The notes below the pieces were generated by a model. It saw only the letters and a list, made by a program, of their open reading frames with translations, was not told where the DNA came from and did no database searches. A DNA stretch of 64,000 bases, taken from the NCBI RefSeq assembly GCF_002105155.1, contig NW_019028980.1, positions 744,001 to 808,000 of the forward strand, given 5' to 3'. The stretch is from Lobosporangium transversale (Eukaryota). Positions within the stretch are counted from its first letter, which is position 1. Each line of letters opens with the position of its first letter. Positions 2,009-59,502 of the stretch are shown piece by piece. A program made the translations under genes and the position numbers.

Positions 2009-2042
<34 letters not shown>

Positions 2043-2840: not shown

Positions 2841-3076
2841 AGTTGAAAGAAATGAAGTTTTGTTGAGATAAAACAAAAAAAAAAAAAAAAAAGCGAAGAC
2901 AATTCTTTAGTACTTCACATTTATTTATAAAAAAATAAAAAAAAAAAAAACTTTGTTGCGCAGTATAACCATGCGCCAGCGACGCGTCTCCCGCCACGTT
3001 TTTTCATTCTCGGCTTACTTTCAATGGGAAATGGGCTTTTACGCGAATGCAGTTCACAGAAAGAGTCATCTTTTTT

Positions 3077-3092
3077 AAACCGATCGACTCCT

Positions 3093-3126
<34 letters not shown>

Positions 3127-3163
3127 ATAACAAGGACCCTCAGGAAACCGATCGACTCCTTCT
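3077..3163 (-). mobile_element. Second non-LTR stub of the same family with a perfect 19-bp TSD
   Basis: AAACCGATCGACTCCTTCT at 3077-3095 and 3145-3163 flanks poly(T) + GATAACAAGGACCCTCAGG. Confidence 0.85.
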
Positions 3164-3362
3164 CTTCGGCACATAAAAAAATAAATTATCCATAGCTCCA
3201 ACGCGTCTTCTTCCAGATACTTCATCATGTACAGAGAGTCCTCAAAAAAGGGTCCAAAATAGTGCCTTGTCAATGAGCCCTTTTAATTCAATTAAGAAGA
3301 GGGTCGTTTTTTAAGCCCTTTCTTTAAGGTTGATCGATAAAGCATTATATATATAATATATA

Positions 3363-3410
3363 TTTTTTTTTTTTTTTTTTTTTTTTTGGTAACAAGGACC
3401 CACGAGGTCA
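3363..3410 (-). mobile_element. Third, more diverged copy of the non-LTR 3' end (5' extent unknown)
   Basis: poly(T) + GGTAACAAGGACCCACGAGG resembles the two stubs. No clear TSD seen. Confidence 0.55.
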
Positions 3411-10300: not shown

Positions 10301-10825
10301 CCAACGCGTCCTTTGAATTCAGCCGGTCTCCTTGGGCCATATCTCCATACTATGCCAAGCTATCCTGCTCTGCGCGGAGTCCCTCAACAGCAACCGTTTG
10401 CGACGCGTCCCCCACAGGTACCTCAACAGCACTCATCGCTGGTTCAAGCTTCTTTACATTGCTTCCAACGAGCGCCGGAGTCACCGCATCACTCGTCCCC
10501 AGGCCCCAGCTCATCAAGCGCCACTTTTAAATGGAAAGCAGACCGTGGAAAGCTTACGGTGGCAGATGCTTGGGAGGAGTTTCATGGACCTCTTGCGGCA
10601 TTCAAAAGACTGAACCCGAGTTGGCCAGTGAGTACGTCAGATCAAAGGGCTTACAATCGACGATATGAGTTGATTAGGCTGATCAGCGAAGCAGCGCAAA
10701 GGGAGGGCCGCAAGCCTGAAGACATTGTTGCTGAGTGGTCACAAGCAAATGAGGGAAAGACTATTAACTCGCTGTTAATATCTATGAAAGCTAGGGAGCA
10801 TGAGGATCCTGAAGATGGCCAATAA
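7369..10825 (+). CDS. Crypton-type tyrosine recombinase (NDC10-II-like YR domain plus C-terminal GCR1_C-like DNA-binding domain), four exons
   Basis: Approximate exons 7369-7806, 7910-8372, 8470-9110, 9211-10825 with GT-AG borders. Catalytic-type motifs HHMLLRDEDIR (R), GKTNKKG (K), KVTHAGRHAG (HxxR), LGRW (W), MESFY (Y). C-terminal LTVADAWEEF...YNRRYELIRLI. Confidence 0.88.
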
Positions 10826-22835: not shown

Positions 22836-25206
22836 GGCTGCGGCTCTCGATCTGTCGCGTCGAATGAGCTGTAATGCGTTTTCTTTTGGGAAGGGAAGAG
22901 GAGGTGAGGTGGAGTAAGGAGAGGTTTAAAAGAACAAGAGAGAAGGAAAATAAAAAAGAGGGGGGGGAAGGTTGGGTGTGTGAAAGTATTAAATACATTC
23001 ATCAGCTATGAGCTCGCGTATCGTATTCACTTATTTCCGCACTCACAGGCTCACGAGACAATCTTCTGGAAAACGAGCTTGCATTTCTGCGGCTAAAAAT
23101 GCGTAAGGGTATTTACGAACTTTGATTGGCGCTAGAATAACAACTTTATTTCGCTGCAGGGATCAAATACCACATTCTTCCTTAACTAAGCAAGCATCAT
23201 TTTTTTTTTTTTTTTTTTTTAGTTCCGATGTTATTGAGAGCAAGAATGATGCTCTAAAAGTCGCAGCTATCCCAAGATTGAAGCCTACTGAGGAGTTCAA
23301 GATAGAATCTGTCATGGCAGCAGTTAGCAGCAACACCCACGGCCGCTACTACTGCCATAACACCCTACGGCAAGAAAGAAAACAAAAGAAAAGGATAAAA
23401 AGAAGGCCTGTATCACTATGTAAGGAACGCTGGCTTTTTTTTTTTTTTTTTTTCCCCACCAGCAAAGGCTTTCAGTTTTTTGCGCGCATGCACTAAAGTA
23501 ATGGCGTTTTCCTAAACATCAAATGTCAAATATCACACGCTAGTATTTAAAATCAGTACAAGAAGCCTTGCAATCCTTATCCTTTGAAGCTGCACTCATA
23601 AGGAATGCAGGTACTGAAGGATTATTCTTCATTTTCTCTTCAGAGCTCAGTTTAAGTTCTATCTATTTAAATGTGAAGGCTTTTAATATTTTCCCTCCAA
23701 GCTTTATTAAGGCTCAATCCTATCCAGAACTTTGACTAGAGGAGAGAGGATATGTCGCGTTGTCAAGTATTTTCTATAGGATTTTCGCCATTTTGTTCAG
23801 CAAAGATCTAGAAGCCATAACAGGCACTTCTTTCTTTCATTTTCATTACTTATTATGGTTCACCACGAATTACAGAGGAGGCACACATCCCACTTATGGA
23901 GAGCACTTTCAGTCAGGAACTTGAAGCGTGTTACCAGTCGAGAAATATCTTTCTTGGAGTGCTTTTATATTTCCGAAGATCTGGAAGATATCTCGGGCAC
24001 GGTAATCTCCTGGTATTCTGGCTGCAAGCACAAGCATGTCGGTAGATATAGCATAAATGGTCATCCGAATGGATAAGGTCGCAAACTATCCTGAGATTGT
24101 TCTCCATGTCTGTGGAATTAGCATTGTATGTCTTTGCAATACAGAAGCACACGGCCAATACATCTACCAAAGCAATGTTTGCATAGTAAAACCCAGAAGC
24201 CAAGCTAGATAATAGCATAGGAGAAGACAATAAATTAGCTTTGTGGGTTATGTGCTGTAACGAGTAAAACTTTGAGCTATCGCTTTTTGGATTTTGTTAT
24301 TCTTGCCAATGTAGTGGCAGTAACTCGAGCTTAGGATAGCGAGAGGCGGAGGCCCATTGAAACGGGTAGTTTGTGGCTGTAAGGAAGACAAAAGCGCAAA
24401 GGGTGGGTTTTATAGTTTCAACGATAGTGATGCTTCGCCACAATGTTGAGTATCAGTACTCTTTAGGATACGATTGAATTGAGCCATGCAGGTAATTTAA
24501 AATCCCCTTCATCTGGATGGGGAAAGTTCAATAGTGACTGGAATAAAATTGAATAGGAAAACGTCTCCTCATAAAGTCATTGTGAAGATGTTGTGCGTGC
24601 TGAGACTCCTATCCATGCTTCCGTCAATTAAAATCAAATCCTGTCTGAAAATTTATAAAGGGATCAATTTTATCCTCCTACAGCGATACAAGGGTTTGTT
24701 TATTTACGTTTGGCAAATTTGGCAAATTAGGAGAAGCTGACAACCCCAGTTTTCAGCGCCTCCTGTAATTATGCTTACTACCCACAGCCCAGTCATACTC
24801 TTATGCACATGAGGAAATAGATAAAGATTTACACACAAGTAATTACTTTTTTTTATAAAAATAATAAAAAAAAAAAAAAAAAAAAATAGAGAGAACCAGT
24901 TCTCGCCCGATGAAGAGAAAGATGTGTTCACTTAAACTAGTCCTAACCGCATGTGAAGCGCCCGGTCATAAACATTCTGACTATCTTTAAAGATACGATT
25001 GAATTGATCCAACGCAAATGATTTTATTAAAAAAGAGTATACTAAAAGTTTCGGAACCATATATATTTTTGTCCTCATCCCTTAAATCGGGTAGGGAAAT
25101 TATGTTTATCAAACGCGATCGAAATAAAAATAGAAGGAATGCTACTCAGGAAGTCATTGACTGGACAGCGCTGTGCTTAAAATTATAGGGAAATTTGTCA
25201 GTGTCC

Positions 25207-25215
25207 TGACGCGTT

Positions 25216-25251
<36 letters not shown>

Positions 25252-25453
25252 TAACGATAGAGAGTATGAACTTGGTTTTGTAGTGCAAACCTTTCCCTCG
25301 AAAAATAAAACTGAAGCGGCTCTTATCTTCAGAGCATCTCCAAAGATTACGACAATGCCTCCATATCAAACAGAAGAGGTTTAGAACTGCACAGTACTTG
25401 TTTGAATATCGTATAACAGCCCTTAAAAAAAAAAGCTTCAAGTATGGTCTGGG

Positions 25454-25485
<32 letters not shown>

Positions 25486-25853
25486 CACCTTCGTCTATTC
25501 TAATCTTTACACTGTACAAGCTCGGGGGGGGGGGGGGTTTGTCTTTTTTTCTTGAGCTTATTTTGCAGGGGTTTTTTTTTCTTTTGTTAAGGACTGTTTT
25601 TACGTTATTCGAATACGTACTGTGCCAGTTTTAAGCCTCTTTTACCTAATCCGGAGGCGATGATACAGTCTGTGGAGATGCTCTGAAGGTGAGAGCTGCT
25701 TCACTTTTAGTTTTTGAGCGGAAGAATCTGCATTAAAAAACCCAAGTTCATGTTCTCTATTATTATTGTTAATTTTATATTTTGACTAACATTGCCTAAA
25801 ATCTAAAACAACGCACGAGCCAAGTAAAATCTAAACGTAAAAAAAACGCGTCA
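25207..25853. repeat. Degenerate fold-back / MITE-like inverted repeat (~180-bp core arms)
   Basis: ~25255-25435 (GAGAGTATGAACTTGG...CTTCAGAGCATCTCCA...GCACAGTAC) is an imperfect reverse complement of ~25575-25762 (GTACTGTGC...TGGAGATGCTCTGAAG...CCAAGTTCATGTTCTC). Outer match TGACGCGTTTTTTT / AAAAAAACGCGTCA. Confidence 0.75.
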
Positions 25854-27079
25854 AATTTTCAGAGCACTTTGATAACTTTTTTTTTATAACTCCTATAACG
25901 CAAAGTACAAGGATCTTGCTCTACATGGATGATGGGGAGGATACATAAAAAGGGTTATAAAGCGACACCGCCGTGGTTGCTTACCTGTTACAAGTCGATG
26001 GGCTGTCGTGCTCGTAAGAATACTCTTCAATATCTCAACCGTTCCAATAAAGACTTAGGATTGATTCTGGCAACCCTAAACCAGTCCTTGCGCGTATGTG
26101 CTCACAGGGATGAAAGTTATTTTGGTAGCATTGCTAGGCCATAGGCGGTGGAGAGCAGGGGAAGACCCTTCTTCAAGTCCCCCTTACCTTTTATATTCAG
26201 TGAAATAGCTTTCAGAATCGACATGCCTCAGAAGGATATGATGTAATGATAGTAATAGTAATAAAAGCAATATCAGCCTTCGGTTCCATTTCCGGCTTAT
26301 TCTTGTCGTTTCACAAAAGCATATTCCGCATCCTTCTTTGCTTTGGCCTCCTATCAATGATATCATAGCCGGCTTTGTCTTGTTCCATGCCATATGCCTG
26401 GGTACTGCTTACCTCCAAGATGCTCTTTGTTTTTTGTTAAGATGTCATAAGACAGAGATATGGAATGGATGTGATTGGCCCAGGATAGCTTGTACTCCTG
26501 AATAAGTCGCATTTTTCATGCATGGTGCGTTGTCCATGCACGGTAGGACTACAGCAGTGAATAAAGTCTCATTGACCTGTACTGATGTACTGAACATTCG
26601 TACTGAAGTTTTTTTCAGTAAATTTTTACTTATTATTTACTTATTATTTACTTACACATCGGTAAAAAAAAAAAAAAAAAAAGTAAATTTTGAGTAAAAC
26701 AAAAGTATATTTCGAGTAAAAATCAGTAAGTACTTACTGAAAATATACTTTTTACTTACTTTTGTTTTACTGATATTTACTGAAAATATACTTTTGTTTT
26801 ACTGATATTTACTGGAAATATACTTATTATTTACTTTTGTTTTACTCAAAATTTACTTTTCTTACTTTTCTTTCAGGGGGCCTGCACTTGAATTCCCCGT
26901 ATATGCACGAGCAAACCAAAGCCACTTACTGATGGGTCTCCACATATGCATGTGGATAGGCTGTCATGGACACACGTTGTTCAGAACATGAGATCAACTT
27001 CTATCAAGTATTCAGCGTGCTACCATGATTAAAAGCGACCACCTTCATTTCATGTTGATAGACATGCTTTTCAGGACTT

Positions 27080-27112
<33 letters not shown>

Positions 27113-27555
27113 GCAGACATAGTATATATAGCCCCGTTTCATTTGGTCATGATACCTTATATTTTTTAAATTGATTGAATAGGCTCCAGCGAAAATTGAA
27201 TTGTATTGAATAGCAACTCTAATTCTGATGTCGTTCGCTACTTGCAAGCTTGGCTCGCTGTCCTCTATTTGCACGCCTAGCGGCGGAAGAGGTCAGTGGC
27301 TTTGACGTTGAATAACTGTTATGCGTCATCATGTTTTGCTTCCGCTTCCTTGCCTTCACTCTTAGCTCTCACGCAACGCAATCAAACATGATGATCGTCA
27401 AATTCACAGAGTTCCATCAAGTAAGTAGTAAACATTATCTTTTTTTATCATTTAGCTGCGCTTCCTAATTATCTGTAAGTAATCTCTGGTTTCTTACAAT
27501 GAATAGACGCGGACTTTTTCGATCCAATGAGAACATCGCAGCTTCCTTCTCCCTT

Positions 27556-27889
27556 TTCTTTTCTTTGACCTTGAAGGTCGTTACAAGGAGACACCAGATG
27601 TTCTGCTGATTCGAACCGGCCACTGTACTAGTGGGGAAGCTTTTGAACAGATCTTTGGTCTTGTGCAAAAGCTTCAGCCCCCCGGTAATTAAGAGTCTGT
27701 CAAGCATCTGAATCTTTCTTTTTCTTTTTTTTTTTATTCTTTTCTTTGACCTTGAAGGTCGTTACAAGGAGACACCAGATGTTCTGCTGATTCGAACCGG
27801 CCACTGTACTAGTGGGGAAGCTTTTGAACAGATCTTTGGTCTTGTGCAAAAGCTTCAGCCCCCCGGTAATTAAGAGTCTGTCAAACATC
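27556..27889. repeat. Two-copy direct repeat (~153-bp unit, 181-bp period) inside the arm; mirrored at ~38555-38888
   Basis: TTCTTTGACCTTGAAGGTCG...AAGAGTCTGTCAA occurs twice. The duplicated MxDRLLITGG ORFs reflect this. Confidence 0.95.
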
Positions 27890-28421
27890 CGAGTCTTTTA
27901 TTTTCTTTTTCTTTTATTTTCTTTTTCTTTTATTTTCTTTTTCTTTTCTTTTTCTTTTCTTTTTCTTTTTCTTTTCTTTTTCTTTTTCTTTTCTTTTTCT
28001 TTTTCTTTTTTTTCCTCCGAAATATGGCTCTGCCTTGGTTCCTACTATCTCCTGTCGGCTCCTTAGGTTCGACCACAAGTTGCCGTATGCTCTCCGTCTC
28101 GGAAAAATGGATAAGGATGTGATCCTTTGCATGGTACTACAAACGCATGGCCTTTATTCAAACCTGCAACCTGCAACTCGATATCAAAACCGATTTTAAC
28201 TTACTATCATATACTCTGTATTAATATTAGATCAATCAAGATTTCATTCGTTTGCACACTCAGATGATTAGCAGTTATCGGTCTGCGGTTTTTGTTGAGG
28301 GGCATGGATGAGGGTATCGTGGGCAAGACTCTTGACGGATTTGTTTATAATTCGTTGGAATAGCAAGAAGCATCAGGCATTAAAGATGAATAGTACAATA
28401 AACAATCCTTAATGAAGCAAT

Positions 28422-30133
28422 TTATTCTGATCTCTTGCGCTTTCTATCCTTGAGCTTGCAGAGGTGAAAAGATGGCCTCACCCATGTATGGGCATGTTTC
28501 ACCGCGCCTGTAACGCTCGCGGGTCGCCCCTCGACAGCTTCCTTGGCTTTCAAGTAAGGTGCCTTTGTAGCCTCCAGAATTGGCACTGCTTCTGCAATTA
28601 CTCCAAGGCTCTTCTTATCCTTGGGCAGTGTGACCTTGCCCAATAGTCTGGGGATATAAATGGCTTCGCAATCTAGGGTCATTACGAAGATCTCCATTTG
28701 ATCCTCTAAAAGCGTGAATTAGCACCACTGTCTCCGTTTAGGTTTCATGGATTATAAAAATATACAAGAGTATAACATACTTTGAACAAGCAGACCCAGG
28801 ACCGTTGGGTCTACCACACCCTCAGCGAACAAGAGATCTAGTGCCAGCTTCATCTCAGAAAGTAATTTCCTGAAATCTCTACGAAGGAACACGTTAGAAG
28901 TGCCTGGGAGTTTCACCTCCACTATGAGTAGAGGCAGACCGTTGGCCGTAACCAAGTGATCTGGTCTAAAGCGCTCCTCATAGTATTCCTCCGTTGGGAA
29001 TTCGTAATCGCTGAAAGCGGAGGCGTGTTATACCAAGAGTGAAGAAATAACATGTGAATATCCTGCAGAAGTGAATGAAGAACAAAGAACTGACAGGTCC
29101 ACTACTCACCAAAGTCCTATAGTTTCTGCGATGGCATAGAGGTAGGGCCTGAGGTAGAGCATGCTGTATGTCATCTCGTTTATTTTGGGTGGCTCCCAAA
29201 AGAACGTATCGCTGCCAACCGTGGTGAAAATACTCTTGAGCATTTCACTTGCTCCTTCCCAACCCTGTTCAAGACAGGCGCGATACTCGGAAGCAGAGTT
29301 TGACGCCTCTGCTTTCTCCATGCAGAATTTGGAAAAAGCCAAATCCTGCTCACTCAAGGCTACGGTCGTTGTAGCCTTGAAAAAGTGGCTAAGGATCATA
29401 CCATGCCTGTCTTTTGGACAATACTTTTCCATAAATTCCTTTGTAAAAATGAAGTTTATGGAGCTTGAAATCACAGTAAGAACTGTATTAGTGTCACGAC
29501 CTTCGGTGTATTCTCAAGCAATGAAATAAATGGTTGTAAAAAGCACTCACAGAATATCAGGTGAAGAGAGGAGCGTTCCCTGGCGCTGTTCCTCAAGTTT
29601 AACGAGCTCTTCTCGTGCCTCCATGAGGAGAGAAGACACGTCGAAACGTCCTTTCAAGACCAATCTATCCGTGACCTGGCTACTCCTCTCGCCTTCCCCA
29701 GTGAGGCGGTTGACAGGCTCAGACTTTTTAGTCTTGTCAGACTCGTTAGACTAGTTGTTATTATTTTATTAATATTGGAATCATAATGGAAGTAAATATT
29801 AGTCAAATCGGATCAATTCGTTGGTTCAACGTTAATTTATTCGATACATACCCCCTCCAGGTAACCTCTGATTTTTCTTGTTTTTATGTCTACAAGTAGG
29901 GCACGTAAGCTCTCCTTGTAAATCATATTCACGACCGAATCGTTATTTTTTGGTCGCGTCATGTTCTTGATCCTTGTAATAATGTTGTTGAAGCTTTTAA
30001 CACTACGGCCCATACAGTTTTCTTTGGCGATCAATTCGACGAAATGGAAAATGGTAAGATCCTTTGGGCTTGGCCATTCGCCAATTGGAAATTGGCATAC
30101 CATGTTTTCGAAAATGAATGAGTTGACGGCCAT
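28422..30133 (-). CDS. Five-exon gene with a C-terminal PD-(D/E)xK restriction-endonuclease-like domain (left-arm copy)
   Basis: Mirror of 36311-38022. Motif RFRPDHLV...LLIVEVK...DFRKLLSEMKLALD. Confidence 0.7.
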
Positions 30134-30407
30134 TTTGTCTGAAGAGGTTTAATAAAGTGGTGCGGAAGTTTTTTTAAAAGTGTTACGAAGATGAGAGTGA
30201 CAAAACTTGGCTTGTTGCTTAAGACAATGTGAGATGTTTTTCAGATATTAGAAGTCAAGGAGATCAAAAGTTGTTTTTATTATTGTCAAACGAGAGCCTT
30301 TTATCAAAGACTCTCTATGACCGTCACATGATATTCTGACCTTATGAATAAAAATGGAAGTGCACCTGAGGTGCACTCCCAAGCCTCGGTACGTAACAAC
30401 TCCCCCC

Positions 30408-30535
30408 TAGGCTCGTCACCAGCCTGAGGACGAAGCGCACGTGTGTTTACACGTGCTGCAAGGCAAGCGTGCCTAAAAAGGCAACTGGTGGCTTGCTCTT
30501 GCAGATGCTTCTCTCTCAGGCTGGTGACGAGCCTA
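30408..30535. repeat. Perfect 21-bp inverted repeat pair with nearby hairpins, between the nuclease and core gene starts; mirrored at 35909-36036
   Basis: TAGGCTCGTCACCAGCCTGAG (30408-30428) and CTCAGGCTGGTGACGAGCCTA (30515-30535). Hairpins GCACGTGT-gttt-ACACGTGC (~30437) and AGTGCACC-tga-GGTGCACT (~30359). Confidence 0.9.
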
Positions 30536-30963
30536 TCTCTCAGGCTGGAATCAAAAGTCGACTATTAGCTGGCGACTTAAATTTTTTGAATTTTTTTTTT
30601 TTTCAAAGTCAAAAATCATATGGAAGAGCGTACAAAACACATGCAACTCACATTCATGCTTATATGGAGTCAATCTGGCATATATAGATCGGATACACAT
30701 ATACTTTTCAACATTAACTTTTATCTTTCTTTCTCTCTCTTACCTTTCTTCTCCCTCTCCCTCTCCTTCTCCCTCTCCCTCTCCCTCTTCCTCTCTCTCT
30801 CCCTCACCACCTCACTCTTCCCCTCGCCTTCACCCCTTCTCTCACTCTCATTGCGCTCCCATTGCAATCTCATTACACACCTGCTACACACTCATTACCG
30901 ACCTGTAGTTTTCTCTAACATTTGCAAAAAAAAAATTAATAAAATATTTTGCAACATTAACAA

Positions 30964-33081
30964 ATGTCAGCTACTGGTACTCCAGCAAACCCAGCAAGCG
31001 AATATTCCATCCTACCTGATGATGTTGGTCAGAGATGCTATGATACCTTCAAGTTTTACCCAAGAAAGGAGCAACTTGAAGTTGTGGAGACAATTGGACG
31101 CCATCAAGATTGTATTTTGATTGCTGGTACAGGGTGGGGCAAGACGTTGGTGTATTTTCTTCCACTAGTTCTGTGGCCGAAAGAAATTATAGTCATTATC
31201 ACGCCGCTGAGAGCGCTAGGAGATGAACAGTCGGAAAAACTCGACTTATCTGGTATCCCAAACATCCATCTGAAGAAAGGAACAGAGTTTTCAGTCAGTG
31301 ATCTGGTTAAGGGAAAGTACCGCGCTGTGTTTATGTCGCCTGAGATAATTTTTCAGAACCCTCGTGTGAGCTCACTTTGGAGCATCCCTGAATGGAAGAA
31401 CCGATTAAGAGCGGTGGTGGTGGATGAGGCCCATTGTATTGGGACTTGGGGAGGACAATTTAGAACTGACTATGCGAAGCTCGGGCACTTACGCGCAAAA
31501 GTATCTCCTTCAACCTGCTTTGTGGCCGTCTCCGCCATATTGCCCCCAGTGCTTCTCTCTGAAGTTTTGAAGACGCTTCATTTTAGTAATCCTGTTATAT
31601 TTAACTATGGTAACGATCGGACTAATATCCAGCTTCATGTAAAGCAACTACGATACAAAGCGTCCTCCTACCAAGATCTCGAATTTCTGAAAGATGGCAT
31701 CAAGACAATTGTCTATTTTGATGAAATTCGACAGGCGGAAGCAGCAGCTCGACACGTTGGTGAGCTCATAGGCTGTCGTCAAGTCGCAGTATATCACTCG
31801 ATGAAGTCAGATCCCCTAAAGAAGATAAGAATGTCTGATTTTAAAAACAACGAAATACAAGTCCTCATGTCCACAGAGGCCGCTGGCATGGGTTGCGACA
31901 TGAATGATGTTATCAGAGTCATTCAGTACGGATATCCTAAAAATCTGTCAACCCTGATTCAGAGACTTGGTCGTGCAGCACGCAACCCTGATCTAGAAGG
32001 GGATGGCATCCTTCTTGTCCCGGCATCCAATAGTAAATCTATAGGTAATGTGGATAAAGATATTGTTGAATATGTCAAAACTACAGGTTGTCGCCGCGAG
32101 CTCCTTAATAACTTTTTCGGGAACCAACATAAAGTTATTTCAAGGTGTTGTGACATCTGTAATCCTTCTCTTCCATCAACAGAGGAATCTTTACATGGAT
32201 TAGTTGCGGCAGATACAAGCGACTCTGGTAGTATACTTCCGAAAGTATCATTCACTGAAGCGGAGCGGAAGGTGATAGTAAAGGCAATTGAAACATGGCG
32301 GTATAACATTTTCAAGGAGCAATACGAAGGTCGTTCTCTCTTTGTAAGCCTCGAATGTATCATGTCAAACAAAATGATCAAAACACTTGCTGGAAAAGTC
32401 GCGAGGATAAAACCGTCTGAGTCAGTTCAATCTGTCATTCCATGGCTCTCCATTAAGCAGGATCATATAAAAACTCTGGATGACATGATTGTTGATCTGA
32501 AGACGGACATCATGGCAAGGAGAACACAATCAAGATCAGCGAGTCGTCCATCAGTACAAGATGCGGAGGCAAAGCCAATACAGCAAGTGCATCATTTGCT
32601 TGAGCATCAGCAGGAAAGACAATATGGGCAATTTAGCACAATTCAAGGACTGGAGGCGCTACTCAAGTCGCAAAAAGTCCATCATCTAATACGACAACCA
32701 CCGCTGAAGCAGTTAATACCATGGGATGCATTAGGGCCTCTACAGCACCAAGAATGCCATTGTTGCAAGCTATCAGAGTTGCAACAACCACTGGAACAAC
32801 AGCAACTACTTTTGCAACAGATATTGCAAGCAATTTTGAGTAATCCACCAACGCGGCAACTGCTGTTACAGCCGCCACTGAATCAGTTGCTGCTCAGACA
32901 ACCACTGCAATGTCAACAACCATTGCAAGAAGGACTACAAGAGCACGAGCCACCGCAGGAACAACCGCAGGAGCACCCTAGAAAAGAGAAACTGACATCT
33001 CGGTCTTCACGAAAGCGCAAAGAGCTAAGTAGTCCAACAACATCACAAAATAATATAAAATTTATATCTTGGGAACCATGA
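30964..33081 (+). CDS. RecQ-like SF2 helicase of the AcademH-like element
   Basis: AGTGWGKT (motif I), VVDEAHC (II), VSAI (III, normally SAT), STEAAGMGCD (V), QRLGRAAR (VI), CRR...CCDIC Zn module, Q-rich tail. Confidence 0.92.
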   Translation: MSATGTPANPASEYSILPDDVGQRCYDTFKFYPRKEQLEVVETIGRHQDCILIAGTGWGKTLVYFLPLVLWPKEIIVIITPLRALGDEQSEKLDLSGIPNIHLKKGTEFSVSDLVKGKYRAVFMSPEIIFQNPRVSSLWSIPEWKNRLRAVVVDEAHCIGTWGGQFRTDYAKLGHLRAKVSPSTCFVAVSAILPPVLLSEVLKTLHFSNPVIFNYGNDRTNIQLHVKQLRYKASSYQDLEFLKDGIKTIVYFDEIRQAEAAARHVGELIGCRQVAVYHSMKSDPLKKIRMSDFKNNEIQVLMSTEAAGMGCDMNDVIRVIQYGYPKNLSTLIQRLGRAARNPDLEGDGILLVPASNSKSIGNVDKDIVEYVKTTGCRRELLNNFFGNQHKVISRCCDICNPSLPSTEESLHGLVAADTSDSGSILPKVSFTEAERKVIVKAIETWRYNIFKEQYEGRSLFVSLECIMSNKMIKTLAGKVARIKPSESVQSVIPWLSIKQDHIKTLDDMIVDLKTDIMARRTQSRSASRPSVQDAEAKPIQQVHHLLEHQQERQYGQFSTIQGLEALLKSQKVHHLIRQPPLKQLIPWDALGPLQHQECHCCKLSELQQPLEQQQLLLQQILQAILSNPPTRQLLLQPPLNQLLLRQPLQCQQPLQEGLQEHEPPQEQPQEHPRKEKLTSRSSRKRKELSSPTTSQNNIKFISWEP

Positions 33082-33130
33082 AGATTTTTATCATTCAATA
33101 AACAAATTAAGCAAACAGAATCTCTTTGGT

Positions 33131-35488
33131 TTATTGTTCACAGGTCGCATGGACGTAATCAGTAATATCAAAACCAACAATATCGTCCTGCATATCTTCC
33201 TCCTCGTCTTCAATCTCCGTCTCATTATCTACATTCATATCATTGTCAACGCTCAAATCCCCACCCTGCTTCCGGACACAGACTGAATTGACGAATGATT
33301 GGATGCGCTTGCCTTCATTCATTTTTATTATGCCTTCTATGAGGAGATTAGCCACTGATGTGGCGTTTCCAAAGTTTGGATGATTCCTCTTCTCCTGAGG
33401 TATGTTGTCAAAGATATAATACTCTACTAATGACTTGTGGATTGCTGAGATGTCATCGCTCATCGACATATTTTCATGTTTAGTGCCTGTGTATGGAATA
33501 TTAAAATCAATCTCCATTTGGTCCGATAGATCACCGAGAGTCTGAACATTGACAGAAAGTGTCTCTTCCTCCATTTCCCAGTGGTCACAGGTTCGTTTCG
33601 CTTTAAATAAATTCTTGATCAATAAATTGTTGTGCTCTTGGTAAAGGTCTGCTGGTATCCAACGGTTTGGTTGGCCAGTGGTATTGACTAGCCATGAAGA
33701 TCTAACGGCATCCTTTGTTTGCTTGGACCAGGAGTAAGCAAAGCCGCAATGTAGATGCAGAAGTTCATTTGCATAGTTTTTTGTTGATCCGGCTTGAAAC
33801 ATTATTGTGATCCATTTTAGAATCTCTTCAATGCGCCCATGATCACCTGCTTTGATCGCAGACGATAGCTCCAAGTAAAAAAGCATGTCACGGAGAAACA
33901 AGGCGGAATTCCTAGATGTGGTCCCATCGAGGATTTCTAAGGAGCCAGTCAGAAGAAATCTATCAATTAATGTGTCCACTTTCGCCATGAGTTCAATTTT
34001 AAGTACTTCATCGGAGACACCTTCCGCAAATTCTTCCAAGTTTGTACTTAGTAGAGTAAGCTCCCATGCCCGTTGTACTAGTGCATCAAATGACTCGCGG
34101 AGAAGCTCATTTGTGGCATGAAAATCAGGCTTCTCTAGGGAAACCCTCTTTCGTTCAAGCAACGATACATTGAACGCAATTGAACCAGGTGTTGAAGCAG
34201 TGCCATAATGGGTACGCAAAATTGTTGAGGCCAGAAGCATTTGAAGATGGAATAACTGAATGACAGGTATGACCCAGTCAAGGCGGTGGTATGATGAGAT
34301 ATCGTCTGCACGTAATTCCTTCAATGAACGGAGCCTACTGACCGTCAGCTGGTCACCAGCAATGAGTATTCTTCGTCCCTCAAACCATTCATGCGGGAGT
34401 TCCAGCGCAGCTTCCGTTATAAATTCCAAGACTTCCAAGTTACCGCGAATCGTTCCTTGGTCAATACGCATTGATGGAAGCGGAAAAGTTTTCGTCTTTT
34501 CGAGCGTCAGTAAGTGCTTTGTAGGTGCTGGCATTGATTGCCCATCAAATCTTTTAAAATTTCGGAGTAGAACTCCGACCAAGTGGTATTGAAAAACTTT
34601 TCGAAGATGAGCTTCATTGTCATCAGTAGGCATCAAGTCCTGTAGGCGAAGGGATTGTGTGGGCTTGAAGTTTATCTCCTCCTCGGCTGCAACATTTGAG
34701 ACGATTGCAGTTGCTGTAGTTCCACTTACAAATATGTCCCTGTTTCCAAGTCGTTGATGGTGCTTGTGAGACGCCATATTTATATTATCGTATACGATAT
34801 ACCAAGGCACTTCTCTTACTGTAGCCTGGATACGATCGCGTGAGTCCGTACTTAATGCCTTTAGACCCCTCATGATTGTGGGATGAGAAACTGAAAGTCC
34901 TGCCTTTGAGAAAAGATTGACAAGCTTGACAGGCGCACCTTTACCAAACATATATAATCCAGTCATCATTTGAAGATAATTGCATCTGTTGCTGTATAAG
35001 AAGCCCAAGATACTTGCAATGACAGGAACTACTGTTGTAGCATCCCTGGAACTTGATTTATTCGCTCTGGTAAGGCCATTCAGGAGCGAATAAACGGTAG
35101 GAGCAATGGATTGAAATCTGTTGGCAATATTTTGAAGTGAAAACTTATCGGTTCTCTCCTTACAAACACCATTAGATGGAAGTCGCAACGTGTTATCTGC
35201 TGTAACCTCCCTGAGCTCATCCTTTGCAGAATGGAGAACAAATTCAATAGCACCAGAAAGAGCACTCTTCATATGCTCCGGGTCCGTAATGCCTCGCTGC
35301 CACAGGTCGATAATTTCTGCAGGACCATCATTTGCATAGAAAAAATTAACCTTACGCTTAATATTAGAGTCTTGCGACACTAACGAGGCTTTCAAGAAAG
35401 CCCTCAGCGAAAGCCTATGCTTTGCCATCACGTTATAAACGGCTCTCAAAGAAGTGGCACGTTTCGTCTGTTTCTTGCTTTTTGGCAT
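33131..35488 (-). CDS. Academ-type DDE transposase (DUF6589-like)
   Basis: The real ATG is probably at 35488 (MPKSKK...); the upstream ORF extension is arm sequence. Candidate catalytic motifs VYDNINM, AGDQLT and ADLYQEHNN, plus LFHLQM and NYANELL. Confidence 0.85.
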   Translation of the reverse strand: MPKSKKQTKRATSLRAVYNVMAKHRLSLRAFLKASLVSQDSNIKRKVNFFYANDGPAEIIDLWQRGITDPEHMKSALSGAIEFVLHSAKDELREVTADNTLRLPSNGVCKERTDKFSLQNIANRFQSIAPTVYSLLNGLTRANKSSSRDATTVVPVIASILGFLYSNRCNYLQMMTGLYMFGKGAPVKLVNLFSKAGLSVSHPTIMRGLKALSTDSRDRIQATVREVPWYIVYDNINMASHKHHQRLGNRDIFVSGTTATAIVSNVAAEEEINFKPTQSLRLQDLMPTDDNEAHLRKVFQYHLVGVLLRNFKRFDGQSMPAPTKHLLTLEKTKTFPLPSMRIDQGTIRGNLEVLEFITEAALELPHEWFEGRRILIAGDQLTVSRLRSLKELRADDISSYHRLDWVIPVIQLFHLQMLLASTILRTHYGTASTPGSIAFNVSLLERKRVSLEKPDFHATNELLRESFDALVQRAWELTLLSTNLEEFAEGVSDEVLKIELMAKVDTLIDRFLLTGSLEILDGTTSRNSALFLRDMLFYLELSSAIKAGDHGRIEEILKWITIMFQAGSTKNYANELLHLHCGFAYSWSKQTKDAVRSSWLVNTTGQPNRWIPADLYQEHNNLLIKNLFKAKRTCDHWEMEEETLSVNVQTLGDLSDQMEIDFNIPYTGTKHENMSMSDDISAIHKSLVEYYIFDNIPQEKRNHPNFGNATSVANLLIEGIIKMNEGKRIQSFVNSVCVRKQGGDLSVDNDMNVDNETEIEDEEEDMQDDIVGFDITDYVHATCEQ

Positions 35489-38400
35489 GTTGCAAAATAT
35501 TTTATTAATTTTTTTTTTGCAAATGTTAGAGAAAACTACAGGTCGGTAATGAGTGTGTAGCAGGTGTGTAATGAGATTGCAATGGGAGCGCAATGAGAGT
35601 GAGAGAAGGGGTGAAGGCGAGGGGAAGAGTGAGGTGGTGAGGGAGAGAGAGAGGAAGAGGGAGAGGGAGAGGGAGAAGGAGAGGGAGAGGGAGAAGAAAG
35701 GTAAGAGAGAGAAAGAAAGATAAAAGTTAATGTTGAAAAGTATATGTGTATCCGATCTATATATGCCAGATTGACTCCATATAAGCATGAATGTGAGTTG
35801 CATGTGTTTTGTACGCTCTTCCATATGATTTTTGACTTTGAAAAAAAAAAAAATTCAAAAAATTTAAGTCGCCAGCTAATAGTCGACTTTTGATTCCAGC
35901 CTGAGAGATAGGCTCGTCACCAGCCTGAGAGAGAAGCATCTGCAAGAGCAAGCCACCAGTTGCCTTTTTAGGCACGCTTGCCTTGCAGCACGTGTAAACA
36001 CACGTGCGCTTCGTCCTCAGGCTGGTGACGAGCCTAGGGGGGAGTTGTTACGTACCGAGGCTTGGGAGTGCACCTCAGGTGCACTTCCATTTTTATTCAT
36101 AAGGTCAGAATATCATGTGACGGTCATAGAGAGTCTTTGATAAAAGGCTCTCGTTTGACAATAATAAAAACAACTTTTGATCTCCTTGACTTCTAATATC
36201 TGAAAAACATCTCACATTGTCTTAAGCAACAAGCCAAGTTTTGTCACTCTCATCTTCGTAACACTTTTAAAAAAACTTCCGCACCACTTTATTAAACCTC
36301 TTCAGACAAAATGGCCGTCAACTCATTCATTTTCGAAAACATGGTATGCCAATTTCCAATTGGCGAATGGCCAAGCCCAAAGGATCTTACCATTTTCCAT
36401 TTCGTCGAATTGATCGCCAAAGAAAACTGTATGGGCCGTAGTGTTAAAAGCTTCAACAACATTATTACAAGGATCAAGAACATGACGCGACCAAAAAATA
36501 ACGATTCGGTCGTGAATATGATTTACAAGGAGAGCTTACGTGCCCTACTTGTAGACATAAAAACAAGAAAAATCAGAGGTTACCTGGAGGGGGTATGTAT
36601 CGAATAAATTAACGTTGAACCAACGAATTGATCCGATTTGACTAATATTTACTTCCATTATGATTCCAATATTAATAAAATAATAACAACTAGTCTAACG
36701 AGTCTGACAAGACTAAAAAGTCTGAGCCTGTCAACCGCCTCACTGGGGAAGGCGAGAGGAGTAGCCAGGTCACGGATAGATTGGTCTTGAAAGGACGTTT
36801 CGACGTGTCTTCTCTCCTCATGGAGGCACGAGAAGAGCTCGTTAAACTTGAGGAACAGCGCCAGGGAACGCTCCTCTCTTCACCTGATATTCTGTGAGTG
36901 CTTTTTACAACCATTTATTTCATTGCTTGAGAATACACCGAAGGTCGTGACACTAATACAGTTCTTACTGTGATTTCAAGCTCCATAAACTTCATTTTTA
37001 CAAAGGAATTTATGGAAAAGTATTGTCCAAAAGACAGGCATGGTATGATCCTTAGCCACTTTTTCAAGGCTACAACGACCGTAGCCTTGAGTGAGCAGGA
37101 TTTGGCTTTTTCCAAATTCTGCATGGAGAAAGCAGAGGCGTCAAACTCTGCTTCCGAGTATCGCGCCTGTCTTGAACAGGGTTGGGAAGGAGCAAGTGAA
37201 ATGCTCAAGAGTATTTTCACCACGGTTGGCAGCGATACGTTCTTTTGGGAGCCACCCAAAATAAACGAGATGACATACAGCATGCTCTACCTCAGGCCCT
37301 ACCTCTATGCCATCGCAGAAACTATAGGACTTTGGTGAGTAGTGGACCTGTCAGTTCTTTGTTCTTCATTCACTTCTGCAGGATATTCACATGTTATTTC
37401 TTCACTCTTGGTATAACACGCCTCCGCTTTCAGCGATTACGAATTCCCAACGGAGGAATACTATGAGGAGCGCTTTAGACCAGATCACTTGGTTACGGCC
37501 AACGGTCTGCCTCTACTCATAGTGGAGGTGAAACTCCCAGGCACTTCTAACGTGTTCCTTCGTAGAGATTTCAGGAAATTACTTTCTGAGATGAAGCTGG
37601 CACTAGATCTCTTGTTCGCTGAGGGTGTGGTAGACCCAACGGTCCTGGGTCTGCTTGTTCAAAGTATGTTATACTCTTGTATATTTTTATAATCCATGAA
37701 ACCTAAACGGAGACAGTGGTGCTAATTCACGCTTTTAGAGGATCAAATGGAGATCTTCGTAATGACCCTAGATTGCGAAGCCATTTATATCCCCAGACTA
37801 TTGGGCAAGGTCACACTGCCCAAGGATAAGAAGAGCCTTGGAGTAATTGCAGAAGCAGTGCCAATTCTGGAGGCTACAAAGGCACCTTACTTGAAAGCCA
37901 AGGAAGCTGTCGAGGGGCGACCCGCGAGCGTTACAGGCGCGGTGAAACATGCCCATACATGGGTGAGGCCATCTTTTCACCTCTGCAAGCTCAAGGATAG
38001 AAAGCGCAAGAGATCAGAATAAATTGCTTCATTAAGGATTGTTTATTGTACTATTCATCTTTAATGCCTGATGCTTCTTGCTATTCCAACGAATTATAAA
38101 CAAATCCGTCAAGAGTCTTGCCCACGATACCCTCATCCATGCCCCTCAACAAAAACCGCAGACCGATAACTGCTAATCATCTGAGTGTGCAAACGAATGA
38201 AATCTTGATTGATCTAATATTAATACAGAGTATATGATAGTAAGTTAAAATCGGTTTTGATATCGAGTTGCAGGTTGCAGGTTTGAATAAAGGCCATGCG
38301 TTTGTAGTACCATGCAAAGGATCACATCCTTATCCATTTTTCCGAGACGGAGAGCATACGGCAACTTGTGGTCGAACCTAAGGAGCCGACAGGAGATAGT

Positions 38401-39331
38401 AGGAACCAAGGCAGAGCCATATTTCGGAGGAAAAAAAAGAAAAAGAAAAAGAAAAGAAAAAGAAAAAGAAAAGAAAAAGAAAAAGAAAAGAAAAAGAAAA
38501 GAAAAAGAAAATAAAAGAAAAAGAAAATAAAAGAAAAAGAAAATAAAAGACTCGGATGTTTGACAGACTCTTAATTACCGGGGGGCTGAAGCTTTTGCAC
38601 AAGACCAAAGATCTGTTCAAAAGCTTCCCCACTAGTACAGTGGCCGGTTCGAATCAGCAGAACATCTGGTGTCTCCTTGTAACGACCTTCAAGGTCAAAG
38701 AAAAGAATAAAAAAAAAAAGAAAAAGAAAGATTCAGATGCTTGACAGACTCTTAATTACCGGGGGGCTGAAGCTTTTGCACAAGACCAAAGATCTGTTCA
38801 AAAGCTTCCCCACTAGTACAGTGGCCGGTTCGAATCAGCAGAACATCTGGTGTCTCCTTGTAACGACCTTCAAGGTCAAAGAAAAGAAAAGGGAGAAGGA
38901 AGCTGCGATGTTCTCATTGGATCGAAAAAGTCCGCGTCTATTCATTGTAAGAAACCAGAGATTACTTACAGATAATTAGGAAGCGCAGCTAAATGATAAA
39001 AAAAGATAATGTTTACTACTTACTTGATGGAACTCTGTGAATTTGACGATCATCATGTTTGATTGCGTTGCGTGAGAGCTAAGAGTGAAGGCAAGGAAGC
39101 GGAAGCAAAACATGATGACGCATAACAGTTATTCAACGTCAAAGCCACTGACCTCTTCCGCCGCTAGGCGTGCAAATAGAGGACAGCGAGCCAAGCTTGC
39201 AAGTAGCGAACGACATCAGAATTAGAGTTGCTATTCAATACAATTCAATTTTCGCTGGAGCCTATTCAATCAATTTAAAAAATATAAGGTATCATGACCA
39301 AATGAAACGGGGCTATATATACTATGTCTGC

Positions 39332-39363
<32 letters not shown>

Positions 39364-39870
39364 AAGTCCTGAAAAGCATGTCTATCAACATGAAATGAAG
39401 GTGGTCGCTTTTAATCATGGTAGCACGCTGAATACTTGATAGAAGTTGATCTCATGTTCTGAACAACGTGTGTCCATGACAGCCTATCCACATGCATATG
39501 TGGAGACCCATCAGTAAGTGGCTTTGGTTTGCTCGTGCATATACGGGGAATTCAAGTGCAGGCCCCCTGAAAGAAAAGTAAGAAAAGTAAATTTTGAGTA
39601 AAACAAAAGTAAATAATAAGTATATTTCCAGTAAATATCAGTAAAACAAAAGTATATTTTCAGTAAATATCAGTAAAACAAAAGTAAGTAAAAAGTATAT
39701 TTTCAGTAAGTACTTACTGATTTTTACTCGAAATATACTTTTGTTTTACTCAAAATTTACTTTTTTTTTTTTTTTTTTTACCGATGTGTAAGTAAATAAT
39801 AAGTAAATAATAAGTAAAAATTTACTGAAAAAAACTTCAGTACGAATGTTCAGTACATCAGTACAGGTCA
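35487..39870 (-). repeat. Right inverted arm (4384 bp)
   Basis: Starts ATGTTGCAAAA and ends CATCAGTACAGGTCA. Reverse complement of 26573-30957. Confidence 0.97.
36311..38022 (+). CDS. Five-exon gene with a C-terminal PD-(D/E)xK restriction-endonuclease-like domain (right-arm copy)
   Basis: Approximate exons 36311-36592 (GTATGT donor), 36694-36893 (GTGAGT), ~36962-37334 (GTGAGT), 37434-37663 (GTATGT), 37739-38022. Motif EERFRPDHLVTANGLPLLIVEVKLPG; basic C-terminal KRKR. Confidence 0.7.
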
Positions 39871-40133
39871 CTGACTGGAAACATCAAGGACCGAGCGGGA
39901 TTAATCATGGGAGGCCTGTGAAACATTTTGCCACTGCTCAGTCCAGTTGTGTGGTGCATTGGTCATCCCAGGGAGCGCCGTACATAAGAAAACATTCAAT
40001 ACGTTCCAATAAATTTATTCTATTTCTCGTTTCATTGAATATCTTTCTGATAATGGATTGTACGGTTGAAGAGAAATCCTCAGCTTAAATAGTATAGAAT
40101 CAGGGGGGTGATGGAGATATTGCTTACAATATA

Positions 40134-40376
40134 GGAAAGCTAAAGATGAGGATGAGAGCTACTTGGATAGGTTGATTACACAGTACGTATGGCCGGTATT
40201 TGCTCATCTGCTCATCCCACATCGGATCTTTACCAGTGAATGGGCGTCATGTCTGAGGTGCTGATGAAGAGGATGGAAAGTTAGTTGAGGACTCGCCAAG
40301 GTAAAAATGGTTTTTTCGCTTTGTCTTTTTTTAGTCTTGGCTACAAAAGGAAGAATGATCTACAAACGAACTACTA
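40134..40376 (+). pseudogene. Inverted, decayed duplicate of an internal piece of the neighbouring GH95 gene
   Basis: Matches the reverse complement of ~42423-42748 (KAKDEDESYLD...VEDSPR|GTAAAAATGG...GYK). It has a 4-nt insertion, TGG>TGA and a shortened intron. Confidence 0.85.
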
Positions 40377-42090: not shown

Positions 42091-44538
42091 GGATACTGTT
42101 GCGCTAAAGAATCAATCCAAAACTGTGCTGCTCCCTTCATCACCTTGTACACACGATCCCTCAAGAAATTATAGTCTTGACTATAGAGATACCTCTCCCA
42201 TGCATGTTGAGAGAGCCAAGCATTTGCAGCCGGGAAATAGAATGAATTTGGTTGAGCTGTAGGACCCGTATGTGCCCAGATATTGGAGAATGTATGTGTC
42301 ATCCATCCGCGGACTCCATGATGAAGACTAGCTGTCTCTTGGCCACGAGGGACGAGCAGTTTCTCGATATAGTCGAGCAGCGGTATCACTGTCTCGCCAA
42401 GCCCTGTCCCCTCTGCCAGCCAATAGTTCATCTGCAGATCAATATTCATTTTGTAGCCAAGGCTAGGAGGTCGAAAGAGAAAATAAAAAGCAGAGTTTAA
42501 ATGTTTTAAAAAGCTTTTGAGTAAGTGAGAGCTTAAAATATACATAAGGAAAAAGAAAAGGACAAAGCGAAAAAACCATTTTTACCTTGGCGAGTCCTCA
42601 ACTAACTTTCCATCCTCTTCATCAGCACCCCAGACATGACGCCCACTCACTGGTAAAGATCCGATGTGGGAAGAGGAGATGAGCAAATACCGGCCATACT
42701 GTGTAATCAACCCATCCAAGTAGCTCTCATCCTCATCTTTTGCTTTCCCATGCCGGCTCGCCTCCACTAATTCGTCTGTTGCCAGTTGAGTAGTCGCTGG
42801 TTGGCCCAGATCCAGTTCAAATCTCCGGAATAAAGCTTGGTATTCTTGAAGATACTTTTGGAGCTGATCGTTATAAAACATGGAAAGCGCCTTATCGATC
42901 ACATTGAGCAAGCGAACGTGTGGATCCTTGCCCCGAAAAGTTGGATACTCATTTGTATCCCAGTTCGTGCCCAAACTGTAGTATAGAGTCACCGTGTCAA
43001 ATCCTAACACTATCACTTCTCGACTGTTGGACATGGACACCCCCGTGGCCCCCTCAGCCTTGACTGCGACTTGTGCTTCAACTATCATGTTATTGGATTG
43101 CAGCTGTGCTCGGAATCCTAGCCGGTTATGAATATTGGTGTACTCGAGATTGTTTTCTTGATGTGATTTGAGCGAAACTTTGAGGTTCATAGACTTTGGT
43201 TCAGAGGCTTGCATACGCATCACACAGGTTGACTCTGAGTAGCTGCAAAAATACTCTCTAAAAAGAAAGAAAGTAAAAAAAAAAAAATAAAATAAAAAAA
43301 AAATGAGTATATTAGTAAAAAGTAAAAAGACCATGCAGAAGCTTGAAGGTCCTCACCACATGAGGGTGATTAACTTTCCTTTTTTTTTTTTTTTTTTTTT
43401 TTTTTCCCGGGCTTGCCTATTACCTGCTGTAGTCCACACCTTGTGCCGAGAAGGTCACCCTAATGACTCCAGTTTCCAGATCTAATTCACGTTTATATTG
43501 CTCTACTATTGCGAACGGGCGTAACTCGCTGATCAAGATCTCACCAAATGCCTCGGGCCGTCCAAACCCACGTTCATCCCCTTGTAATGTTTTGACGATC
43601 GGCATGGATGTTTTAATCACTTGCCTCTCATCCAATGCCTTTCGAAATCCCCCCAGCGCCTTTTGCCTTGCCTCTGCTTCACTCTCTGCTACATTTCCGC
43701 CTCTGTACACATTATCTCCTTCGCTTTCACGATCGTAGTAGTAGCTGTTATTATTATTATTATTATTATTGTTGTTGTTGTTGATTTTACCGCTGTTGTT
43801 TTTGTAATTGTACCCAACATTAGTATCCATGGACTCTTGCTGCTGCTGCTGCTGCTGTTGTTGTTGTTGTTGTTGAGATTGCGGTTGAGATTGCGGTCCC
43901 TGTTCAGGGTATCCAGGTCCTCCTGACCAGCAGCTCTCTTCATTCAACACAAGTCGCTCTTGGTTAATCCCTCCACCGACCAACACTCGTACCCGTCCAC
44001 CATTACTCATCAGAAGCCCTTCTTCCTTAATATTCTTTGCAGGGTTCCGATACCAGAGCCTCCAGCGAGAAGGAGGGGGTTCCGATGAAGGGAACGCGTC
44101 TCTCTTTATTTCTGCTTCAATGAATGTTGATGACGTGGGTTCCGATAAGAATTGCCTGCACTCCTCCTCCAATGCGCTCCTAACTTCTGCCTCTGTGCGC
44201 AGGTCTGCAAGACTATTGGAGTTGTCATCCTCATCTTTGAATTTCTTCTCCCCTTCTGTTTTCTTATATCTATCATCCATGTTGTAATCCTGAGAAAATA
44301 CCTCCTGAATGTTGAGCCCTTTATTGGTGTGTGGGCCTCGAAGATGCATAGGTGGTGGTGATGATGGCGATAATGGTGTGTCCTGTAGGAATGGTACCAC
44401 TAGTTGTGCATCTACAATGGCTATAGTCTTCCTGCCTGCGTTATAGCCAAAGTTCCCTTGGCCTGTCAAGAACGCAAGCGTTGTTACCAAGCAGAGCAAC
44501 AGCCGAGCCTTTGGCTTCATAGGACCGTAGTGGTGCAT
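41076..44538 (-). CDS. Glycoside hydrolase family 95 (alpha-1,2-L-fucosidase-like), three exons, signal peptide
   Basis: LWYRNPA...LNEESCWSGGP...YKRELDLETG...YGRYLLISSS...NIDLQMNYW...SPSYSPEHG...LQEW...HRHL...GWPKSWRAAAWARL. Exons about 44538-43425, 43257-42586, 42474-41076. Confidence 0.88.
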
Positions 44539-59394: not shown

Positions 59395-59502
59395 GAATCT
59401 CGGCAACACTATTTAACCGGGGGCGACTTTGGATTTCATCTCTATAAAAAAAATTGAAAAGTCGCCCCCATGGTCCATGCGCATGCTCTGACTCTCACTG
59501 TT
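59395..59502. repeat. Conserved non-coding hairpin repeat, copy 1 (in the intron after the CRN header)
   Basis: GAATCTCGGCAACACTATTTAAC...; 12-bp stem GGGGGCGACTTT (59419-59430) / AAAGTCGCCCCC (59458-59469). Confidence 0.95.

Follow-up and report, generated by a model that had tools for sequence, protein, structure and literature searches.

AcademH transposons have been reported from Mucoromycota (PMC10799480, in the portion of that account considered here), and the section of a second source on which we draw gives them a target-site duplication (TSD) of 9-10 bp (PMC10045372). Here, we describe an element of this type in a window of 64,000 nucleotides of Lobosporangium transversale DNA (RefSeq assembly GCF_002105155.1, contig NW_019028980.1, positions 744,001 to 808,000 of the forward strand); the window is this whole stretch, and all positions are counted from its first letter. 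Like AcademH elements, the transposon at its centre combines an Academ-type DDE transposase with a superfamily 2 (SF2) helicase, has a low copy number and resides in Mucoromycota. Unlike them, it has 4.4-kb arms, i.e. terminal inverted repeats (TIRs), that carry a spliced third gene, and it lacks a perfect 9-10 bp TSD. It is a real, expressed and unusual form of a known transposon family, and this very copy may already be catalogued. The AcademH survey of Kojima 2020 is said to include an L. transversale family, in which case the element may already be in Repbase. Our literature searches, with Kojima 2020 and Repbase Reports outside their scope, returned no account of the element or of gene-bearing AcademH arms.

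Three other systems resemble parts of this layout. In the composite bacterial transposons Tn10 and Tn5, too, gene-bearing inverted arms enclose a core, but there the transposase is encoded in the arms and the cargo lies in the core; the L. transversale element is the reverse, with cargo in the arms and machinery in the core. Maize MuDR also has two convergent genes, promoters in the TIRs and antisense RNA from failed termination, yet its TIRs are ~215 bp long and carry no gene, its transposase belongs to another superfamily and it has no helicase, as far as the consulted part of that source goes (PMC3440606). In Drosophila Galileo and other elements with long TIRs, the repeats grow by tandem duplication and by drawing in internal sequence. 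Those of Galileo reach ~1.26 kb, are longest in non-autonomous copies, and the consulted sections of the study mention no gene in them (PMC3573991), whereas here 4.4-kb arms, an intact spliced gene and open core reading frames occur together.

Layout, ends and copy number of the element

The arms appear as a single long inverted match when the window is compared with itself by blastn: 26569-30957 pairs with 39874-35487 at 99.95% identity over 4,389 columns. Taking the ends at 26577 and 39866, as for all arm sizes and substitution counts given here, the arms differ by no substitution, and the sole difference is an extra T in a poly-T run at 27085. An earlier, sequence-only reading of the window had proposed arms of 4385 and 4384 bp. 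They are indeed real and near-identical, but the perfect match from 26573/39870 on which those lengths were based probably includes 4-7 bp of flank, and we favour 4,381 and 4,380 bp (Table 1). Between them lies a core of 4,529 bp (30958-35486) with two convergent intronless open reading frames (ORFs). Arm pieces are not unique genome-wide: judged by contig depth, they are common to 2 to ~100 other loci.

Support for this structure comes from the assembled contigs of three short-read DNA runs (X1, X2 and X4), one run being possibly the source of the window. In all three the core is one contig of 4,589 nt, i.e. 4,529 plus 2 x 30 nt of arm, which forks into arm sequence at either end, the pattern expected of an assembly graph when each end of the core leads into one shared repeat. 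Contig depth, a crude copy measure and not a copy number, is ~105 over the single-copy flank in X1. Relative to this flank it reaches 3.4 over the core and 6.2 over the inner arm, and the six listed arm pieces identical to the window, from 28030 to 30073, stand at 2.6, 2.1, 2.1, 2.0, 1.9 and 2.8. The ratios in X4 resemble these with more noise, the flank depth itself ranging from 4.9 to 11.7, and the left flank contig of X4 extends 30 nt into the repeat. These data are best explained by two arms and about three members of the family. The copies are dispersed, since the core stands above the flank and a near-identical transposase fragment (P0127, one residue different in 124) lies on a second long contig. 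The successive ratios of core (~3.4), inner arm (~6.2) and nuclease pieces (~2) imply that sibling elements share the core and its adjoining putative promoter segment, and mostly not the exact nuclease gene of the arms.

The precise ends must be interpreted with more care. A score of 7/9, that of the best TSD candidate (Table 1), is reached by 0.3% of random 9-mer pairs, though some 20 end positions were scanned. With the alternative ends 26580/39863 the flanks match at 9/10 positions in inverted and 5/10 in direct orientation, and one other X1 contig stops matching there. Read post hoc, such inverted flanks look like arm-to-arm copying that overran into the TSD. Chimeric copies of Galileo have mismatched flanks in place of a TSD, according to the part of the source used here (PMC3573991). 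We also considered AcademX, in which a nuclease stands in for the helicase and the TSD is 3-4 bp, and rejected it: a helicase is present, and the only perfect 3-4 bp match is a GTAC inside the repeat. The contigs of a further run (X8) have zero cover on the left flank and are hence uninformative on an empty site.

Genes and transcripts of the core and the arms

The two core genes justify the AcademH assignment that had been made from the sequence, as they encode a DUF6589 transposase and a RecQ-like SF2 helicase. All 785 residues of the transposase (785/785) are identical to an L. transversale protein. Among its 55 homologs, the named ones come from Mortierellaceae and a few agarics, and their alignment points to D234 (51/51), D379 (54/54) and E618 (50/51) as the likely DDE triad; DUF6589 together with a D/D/E triad is what we take to define an Academ transposase. 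At least two more AcademH-like transposase families exist in L. transversale (P0023, P0131, P0132, P0133), whose cluster representatives are ~40-44% identical to the window transposase, and a metagenome relative (L001) also has a convergent, though degraded, transposase/helicase pair. In that relative, tandem CCCTAAAAA-like repeats occupy positions 80-210, directly 5' of the transposase. The helicase of the window has intact Walker A, DEAH and QRLGRAAR motifs. Its motif III reads SAI, against SAT in contigs of all four runs (4/4), and the helicase of this copy may therefore be impaired.

Each arm contains an outward-facing gene of five exons, with PD...EVK and DFRKLLSEMK in exon 4. The sequence-only reading had described this gene, and it stands as a model of 449 aa with all four introns recovered: run X5 contains 4/4 of them as CT..AC joints, placed in the left arm where the model predicts. 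Over 809 aligned bases, the X5 contig that includes exons 4 and 5 matches the window with 0 differences. X5 is an RNA run by our guess, there being no RNA record; its zero cover over 23025-27049, between genes, and its spliced joints fit RNA. The exon junctions agree with homologs, and exon 1 shares 53% identity with the N-terminus of a paralog. An alternative acceptor for intron 2 at 37038 was ruled out by homology and the RNA joint.

At its C-terminus, the arm protein has a domain that bears a PD-(D/E)xK motif (P295-D296, E310-x-K312). A full HMMER scan with exon 4 found 58 homologs at E<=0.001 where a word-based search found none. The named ones are all hypothetical Mortierellaceae proteins, several of them on contigs of 46-400 kb. 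The motif is strongly conserved (D in 57/58, E in 55/59 with D in the other 4, K in 59/59), and PD, ExK and two more acidic or basic residues are kept in 55-59 of 58-59 aligned homologs. Neither the pieces of the arm protein nor the homologs match a Pfam family above cut-off; exon 4 has a weak HSDR_N match (E=0.002). A sequence search of the PDB with profile A2 gave no credible match, and the ESM Atlas returned only unnamed Mucoromycota clusters and no named match. The structure model of paralog P0057 (60% identical; predicted local distance difference test, pLDDT, 78) has VIA matches that are restriction-endonuclease (REase) folds, led by DrdV (Z 8.9, root-mean-square deviation (rmsd) 3.6, 137 aligned) and BpuSI (Z 8.8, rmsd 4.1, 150 aligned), with HsdR-N (6.6) and EcoRI (5.2) further down and many REase-fold chains among the top 20. 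The homolog models show an alpha-beta-beta-beta-alpha-beta core, with PD and (D/E)xK on strands 2 and 3. From these models, a PD-(D/E)xK restriction-endonuclease fold is well supported for the family of the arm protein, in line with the earlier suggestion, which the models of two homologs bear out rather than one of the arm protein.

The label of a CRN-type nuclease fared less well. CR/CRN (Crinkler-RHS) proteins are also lineage-expanded in eukaryotes, with variable N-termini, a C-terminal REase-fold domain and a link to mobile DNA, in the part of their description considered here (PMC5289972). Unlike them, the arm protein has no detected Ubl/LxLFLAK header, NTPase or kinase and no Pfam family above cut-off. 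An NTPase or kinase coupled to the REase is common, though not universal, in CR/CRN proteins; Pfam domains of this kind were found neither in the four arm ORF pieces nor in 19 homologs and the 40 members of alignment A1. Exon 1 and paralog P0125, scanned for a header with Pfam profiles, had no match at E<=0.01.

The arms stop at the core genes with great precision. One inner boundary lies 7 nt 5' of the helicase ATG and the other inside the transposase ATG. Since the arms end at both core start codons, helicase and transposase have identical upstream sequence. Judging from this arrangement, the inner arm segment is likely one duplicated promoter and 5' leader common to both genes, and each arm probably has two promoters placed back to back, one for the cargo gene and one for a core gene. 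Transcription also runs against the transposase, where X5 contains three introns on the opposite strand, the first of them (33400-33529) joined to the helicase contig.

In the outer arm, an inward spliced transcript is convergent with the nuclease gene and overlaps its 3' end. It has no ORF above 37 aa and is probably non-coding, and it belongs to a multicopy family (~15-19x). An Rfam scan gave 9 matches, all far under the gathering score, and no RNA or ribozyme was assigned to it. The inward RNA is very deep in X5, and most of it represents alleles of other copies (83,741/87,458 at 27514). A candidate nested terminus at 27129 was discarded, its only partner being its own mirror copy. Close to it, a short segment (27137-27171) stands at ~100x depth and in three runs has loose ends to its left and right; it might be a motif present in many copies or the end of some other repeat. 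At the other end of the nuclease gene, RNA and DNA contigs of the 30230-30400 repeat continue into other sequences; this repeat may be a leader or promoter common to several genes. The likely common promoter of the core genes, the antisense transcripts, the inward RNA and the repeats nested in the arms had all escaped the sequence-only reading.

Table 1. Coordinates of the transposon and of the features within it (positions in the window)
Feature	Position	Strand	Remarks
AcademH-type DNA transposon, ~13.3 kb	26577..39866		3-bp uncertainty at the ends; could be 26580-39863
Left arm (terminal inverted repeat), 4,381 bp	26577..30957	+	
Right arm, 4,380 bp	35487..39866	-	one T different from left arm
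Best 9-bp TSD candidate, left copy	26568..26576	+	7/9 match to right copy
Best 9-bp TSD candidate, right copy	39867..39875	+	palindromic GTCA-N-TGAC
Subterminal TACTG/TTTACT motif array	26580..26860	+	mirrored in right arm; putative transposase-binding region, judged from motifs
Inward spliced transcript(s), outer arm	27137..28530	+	GT..AG introns 27421-27506, 28134-28230; limits approximate; mirrored in right arm
Two tandem copies of ~190-bp unit, 95% alike	27556..27930	+	in both arms
Arm gene, left copy, 449 aa	28422..30133	-	exons 30133-29852, 29750-29551, 29463-29110, 29010-28781, 28705-28422
Second high-copy repeat, ~25x	30253..30398		upstream of nuclease ATG; both arms; from depth and loose contig ends
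128-bp TA-flanked hairpin resembling a miniature inverted-repeat transposable element (MITE), high copy	30408..30535		mirror 35909-36036, same site in both arms
Inner arm segment 5' of helicase ATG	30536..30957	+	mirror 35487-35908 upstream of transposase ATG; ~6 copies per genome in X1
RecQ-like SF2 helicase, 705 aa, no intron	30964..33081	+	DEAD, Helicase_C and weak RecQ_Zn_bind Pfam matches
Academ DDE transposase (DUF6589), 785 aa	33131..35488	-	E=6e-110; first two ATG bases inside arm
Three GT..AG introns antisense to transposase	33400..35175	+	33400-33529, 33591-33731, 35097-35175; run X5
Arm gene, right copy, identical	36311..38022	+	exons 36311-36592, 36694-36893, 36981-37334, 37434-37663, 37739-38022

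Origin of the arms and role of the arm gene

We think it probable that this is a low-copy AcademH element whose TIRs grew to 4.4 kb by cargo uptake, with the cargo copied between the arms and the nuclease-fold gene a passenger. What the TIRs took up would be a spliced nuclease-fold gene, the spliced non-coding RNA and two short repeats. The transposase would bind the subterminal repeats and cut the ends with the assistance of the helicase, as proposed for AcademH. The inner end of each arm would drive the core gene that abuts it, one duplicated promoter thus serving two genes in a manner reminiscent of maize MuDR, and read-through of the helicase would make antisense RNA that could damp the transposase. 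Gene conversion between arms would keep those of one element identical. A crossover between them would flip the core and leave expression unchanged; such flipping is an expected outcome of long inverted repeats. The nuclease-fold gene, a member of a dispersed Mortierellaceae family, would ride along, unneeded for transposition.

Homogenisation of the arms, which had been surmised before, is supported indirectly. There are no substitutions between the arms, yet the window differs from the majority allele of X1 at 6/4,529 core sites and at 5/214 sites of an outer-arm piece; the arms are thus identical within an element and divergent between elements. The MITE-like hairpin and the 190-bp tandem duplication occupy identical positions in the left and the right arm. 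In X4, sample-specific arm variants occur on single contigs at ~2-3x flank depth with no other allele listed, among them a contig without 10 bp of nuclease exon 1, a frameshift. These variants on contigs of multi-copy depth fit both arm conversion and a dispensable gene, and are suggestive only. The contrast between ~3 copies of the core and ~2 of the identical nuclease, together with the X4 frameshift, points to cargo.

Several observations weigh against this account. No perfect 9-10 bp TSD is present at the candidate element ends, the best reaching 7/9, so that this copy bears no such sign of a recent clean transposition. A recent one-off duplication of an arm would equally give identical arms, with no ongoing conversion. 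The reading of the X4 variants as present in both arms, and of the frameshift as present in all copies, is weakened by depth being so crude a measure and by contig assembly, which hides minority alleles. About seven diverged nuclease copies in X1 (depth ~700) may reside in the arms of sibling elements; were that so, the nuclease would be a regular component of the family. The arm gene itself keeps an uninterrupted reading frame, four introns that are spliced and the complete active-site motif, as would fit a function under selection. Its fold is predicted on two homologs and not on the arm protein itself, and their models (60% and 34% identical) gave zero Foldseek matches at E<=0.001, although the non-significant matches are enriched for the REase fold. 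Finally, none of the nuclease locus tags seen lies beside a transposase tag, which would favour a passenger, but this is weak evidence because short-read assemblies cut cores from arms.

One might suppose that the arm nuclease is instead a third transposition gene that processes ends or intermediates, much as a nuclease replaces the helicase in AcademX; a role in processing had been raised by the sequence-only reading. That the gene is intact, spliced and duplicated with a conserved PD-(D/E)xK motif would suit such a role, as would the ~7 diverged copies that remain unplaced and the distinction of AcademX from AcademH by nuclease versus helicase in the consulted part of the source (PMC10045372). 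Yet, the identical nuclease stands at ~2x against ~3.4x for the core, one X4 contig lacks 10 bp of exon 1, and the homologs on long host contigs show no sign of linkage to a transposase; the 4.9-kb relative L001 has no such ORF either, but is too short to include arms. Copy counts and the frameshift in one sample thus disfavour a processing role, and we hold it to be unlikely. The nuclease and the abundant non-coding RNA that converges on it might otherwise form a toxin with an antisense antidote, an addiction or spore-killer-like module against loss of the element. One RNA contig contains both the plus-strand intron 28134-28230 and the nuclease's exons 5 and 4 in spliced form, and hence the two transcripts overlap; at the intron joint of the inward RNA the depth is 25,000, compared with 491 over the host gene in the flank, depth being a poor measure of expression; and REase domains have been proposed as the toxic part of many CR/CRN proteins, in the part of that work drawn on here (PMC5289972). 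But the contigs are unstranded, the abundant RNA consists mostly of alleles of other copies, neither a kinase nor any other resistance domain turned up, toxicity is conjectural and the X4 deletion suggests that the gene can be lost, all of which makes such a module highly doubtful. A broader version, in which the arms are the functional third module of a new AcademH subtype, with an active nuclease and antisense RNA acting as a toxin-antidote (addiction or drive) system, duplicated and kept intact through conversion between the arms, seems to us quite unlikely.

Other explanations bear on the arms as a whole. Two copies of a separate nuclease-bearing mobile unit could have inserted in inverted orientation around an AcademH core, like IS10 in Tn10. 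The arms are indeed a mosaic of multicopy pieces, with outer-arm parts at 15-100x depth. However, their inner limits fall exactly at the start codons of the two core genes, to the point that two bases of the transposase ATG come from the arm, the depth of the inner arm is ~2x that of the core, and neither a transposase nor an inner terminal repeat was seen in an arm, so that a composite origin is very improbable. A misassembly that duplicated one arm would account for essentially identical arms and for the lack of a perfect TSD. It is barely credible given that the core contig forks into arm at both ends in 3/3 DNA runs and that window-identical arm pieces stand at ~2x flank in X1, both of which argue against it, as does the X4 flank contig running 30 nt into the repeat. 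An AcademH element with arms expanded by cargo is thus the account that we prefer.

Surroundings of the element and wider meaning

The window has other traces of mobile DNA and rearrangement. A degraded inverted copy (40131-40330, 94%) of an exon end and 5' splice site of the neighbouring GH95 gene (42556-42751) lies ~260 bp outside the right end of the element, and is possibly the footprint of a local rearrangement. At 0.8 kb to the left of the transposon is an old palindromic MITE-like element of 550 bp (25236-25783), 68% self-complementary. Three copies of a poly-T plus GATAACAAGGACCC motif at 2011-3401 are possibly retroelement ends. An ORF at 9212-10825 (+) has a Pfam NDC10_II match, suggestive of a Crypton-like element. 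Further right, a 622-codon ORF (59851-61719, +) encodes a P-loop NTPase with a C-terminal PxFD motif, flanked by direct repeats of ~108 bp (59395-59502 and 61794-61903); we take it to resemble CR-type proteins that combine an NTPase and a REase.

For a eukaryotic cut-and-paste transposon the layout is inside out: the arms hold the probable cargo, the core holds the machinery, and a single promoter, likely present in duplicate, serves both core genes. The arms are more than three times as long as the longest Galileo TIRs given in the consulted part of the source (PMC3573991). As short-read assemblies split such elements and leave a lone 4.5-kb core, its frequency in Mortierellaceae may be underestimated; contigs of 4-6 kb hold many of the related transposases, which is weak evidence in this direction. 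The element also links an unnamed and expanded Mortierellaceae family of REase-fold proteins to a vehicle that could spread it, and, being compact, expressed and low in copy number, it offers a system for work on the Academ superfamily, which has received little study.

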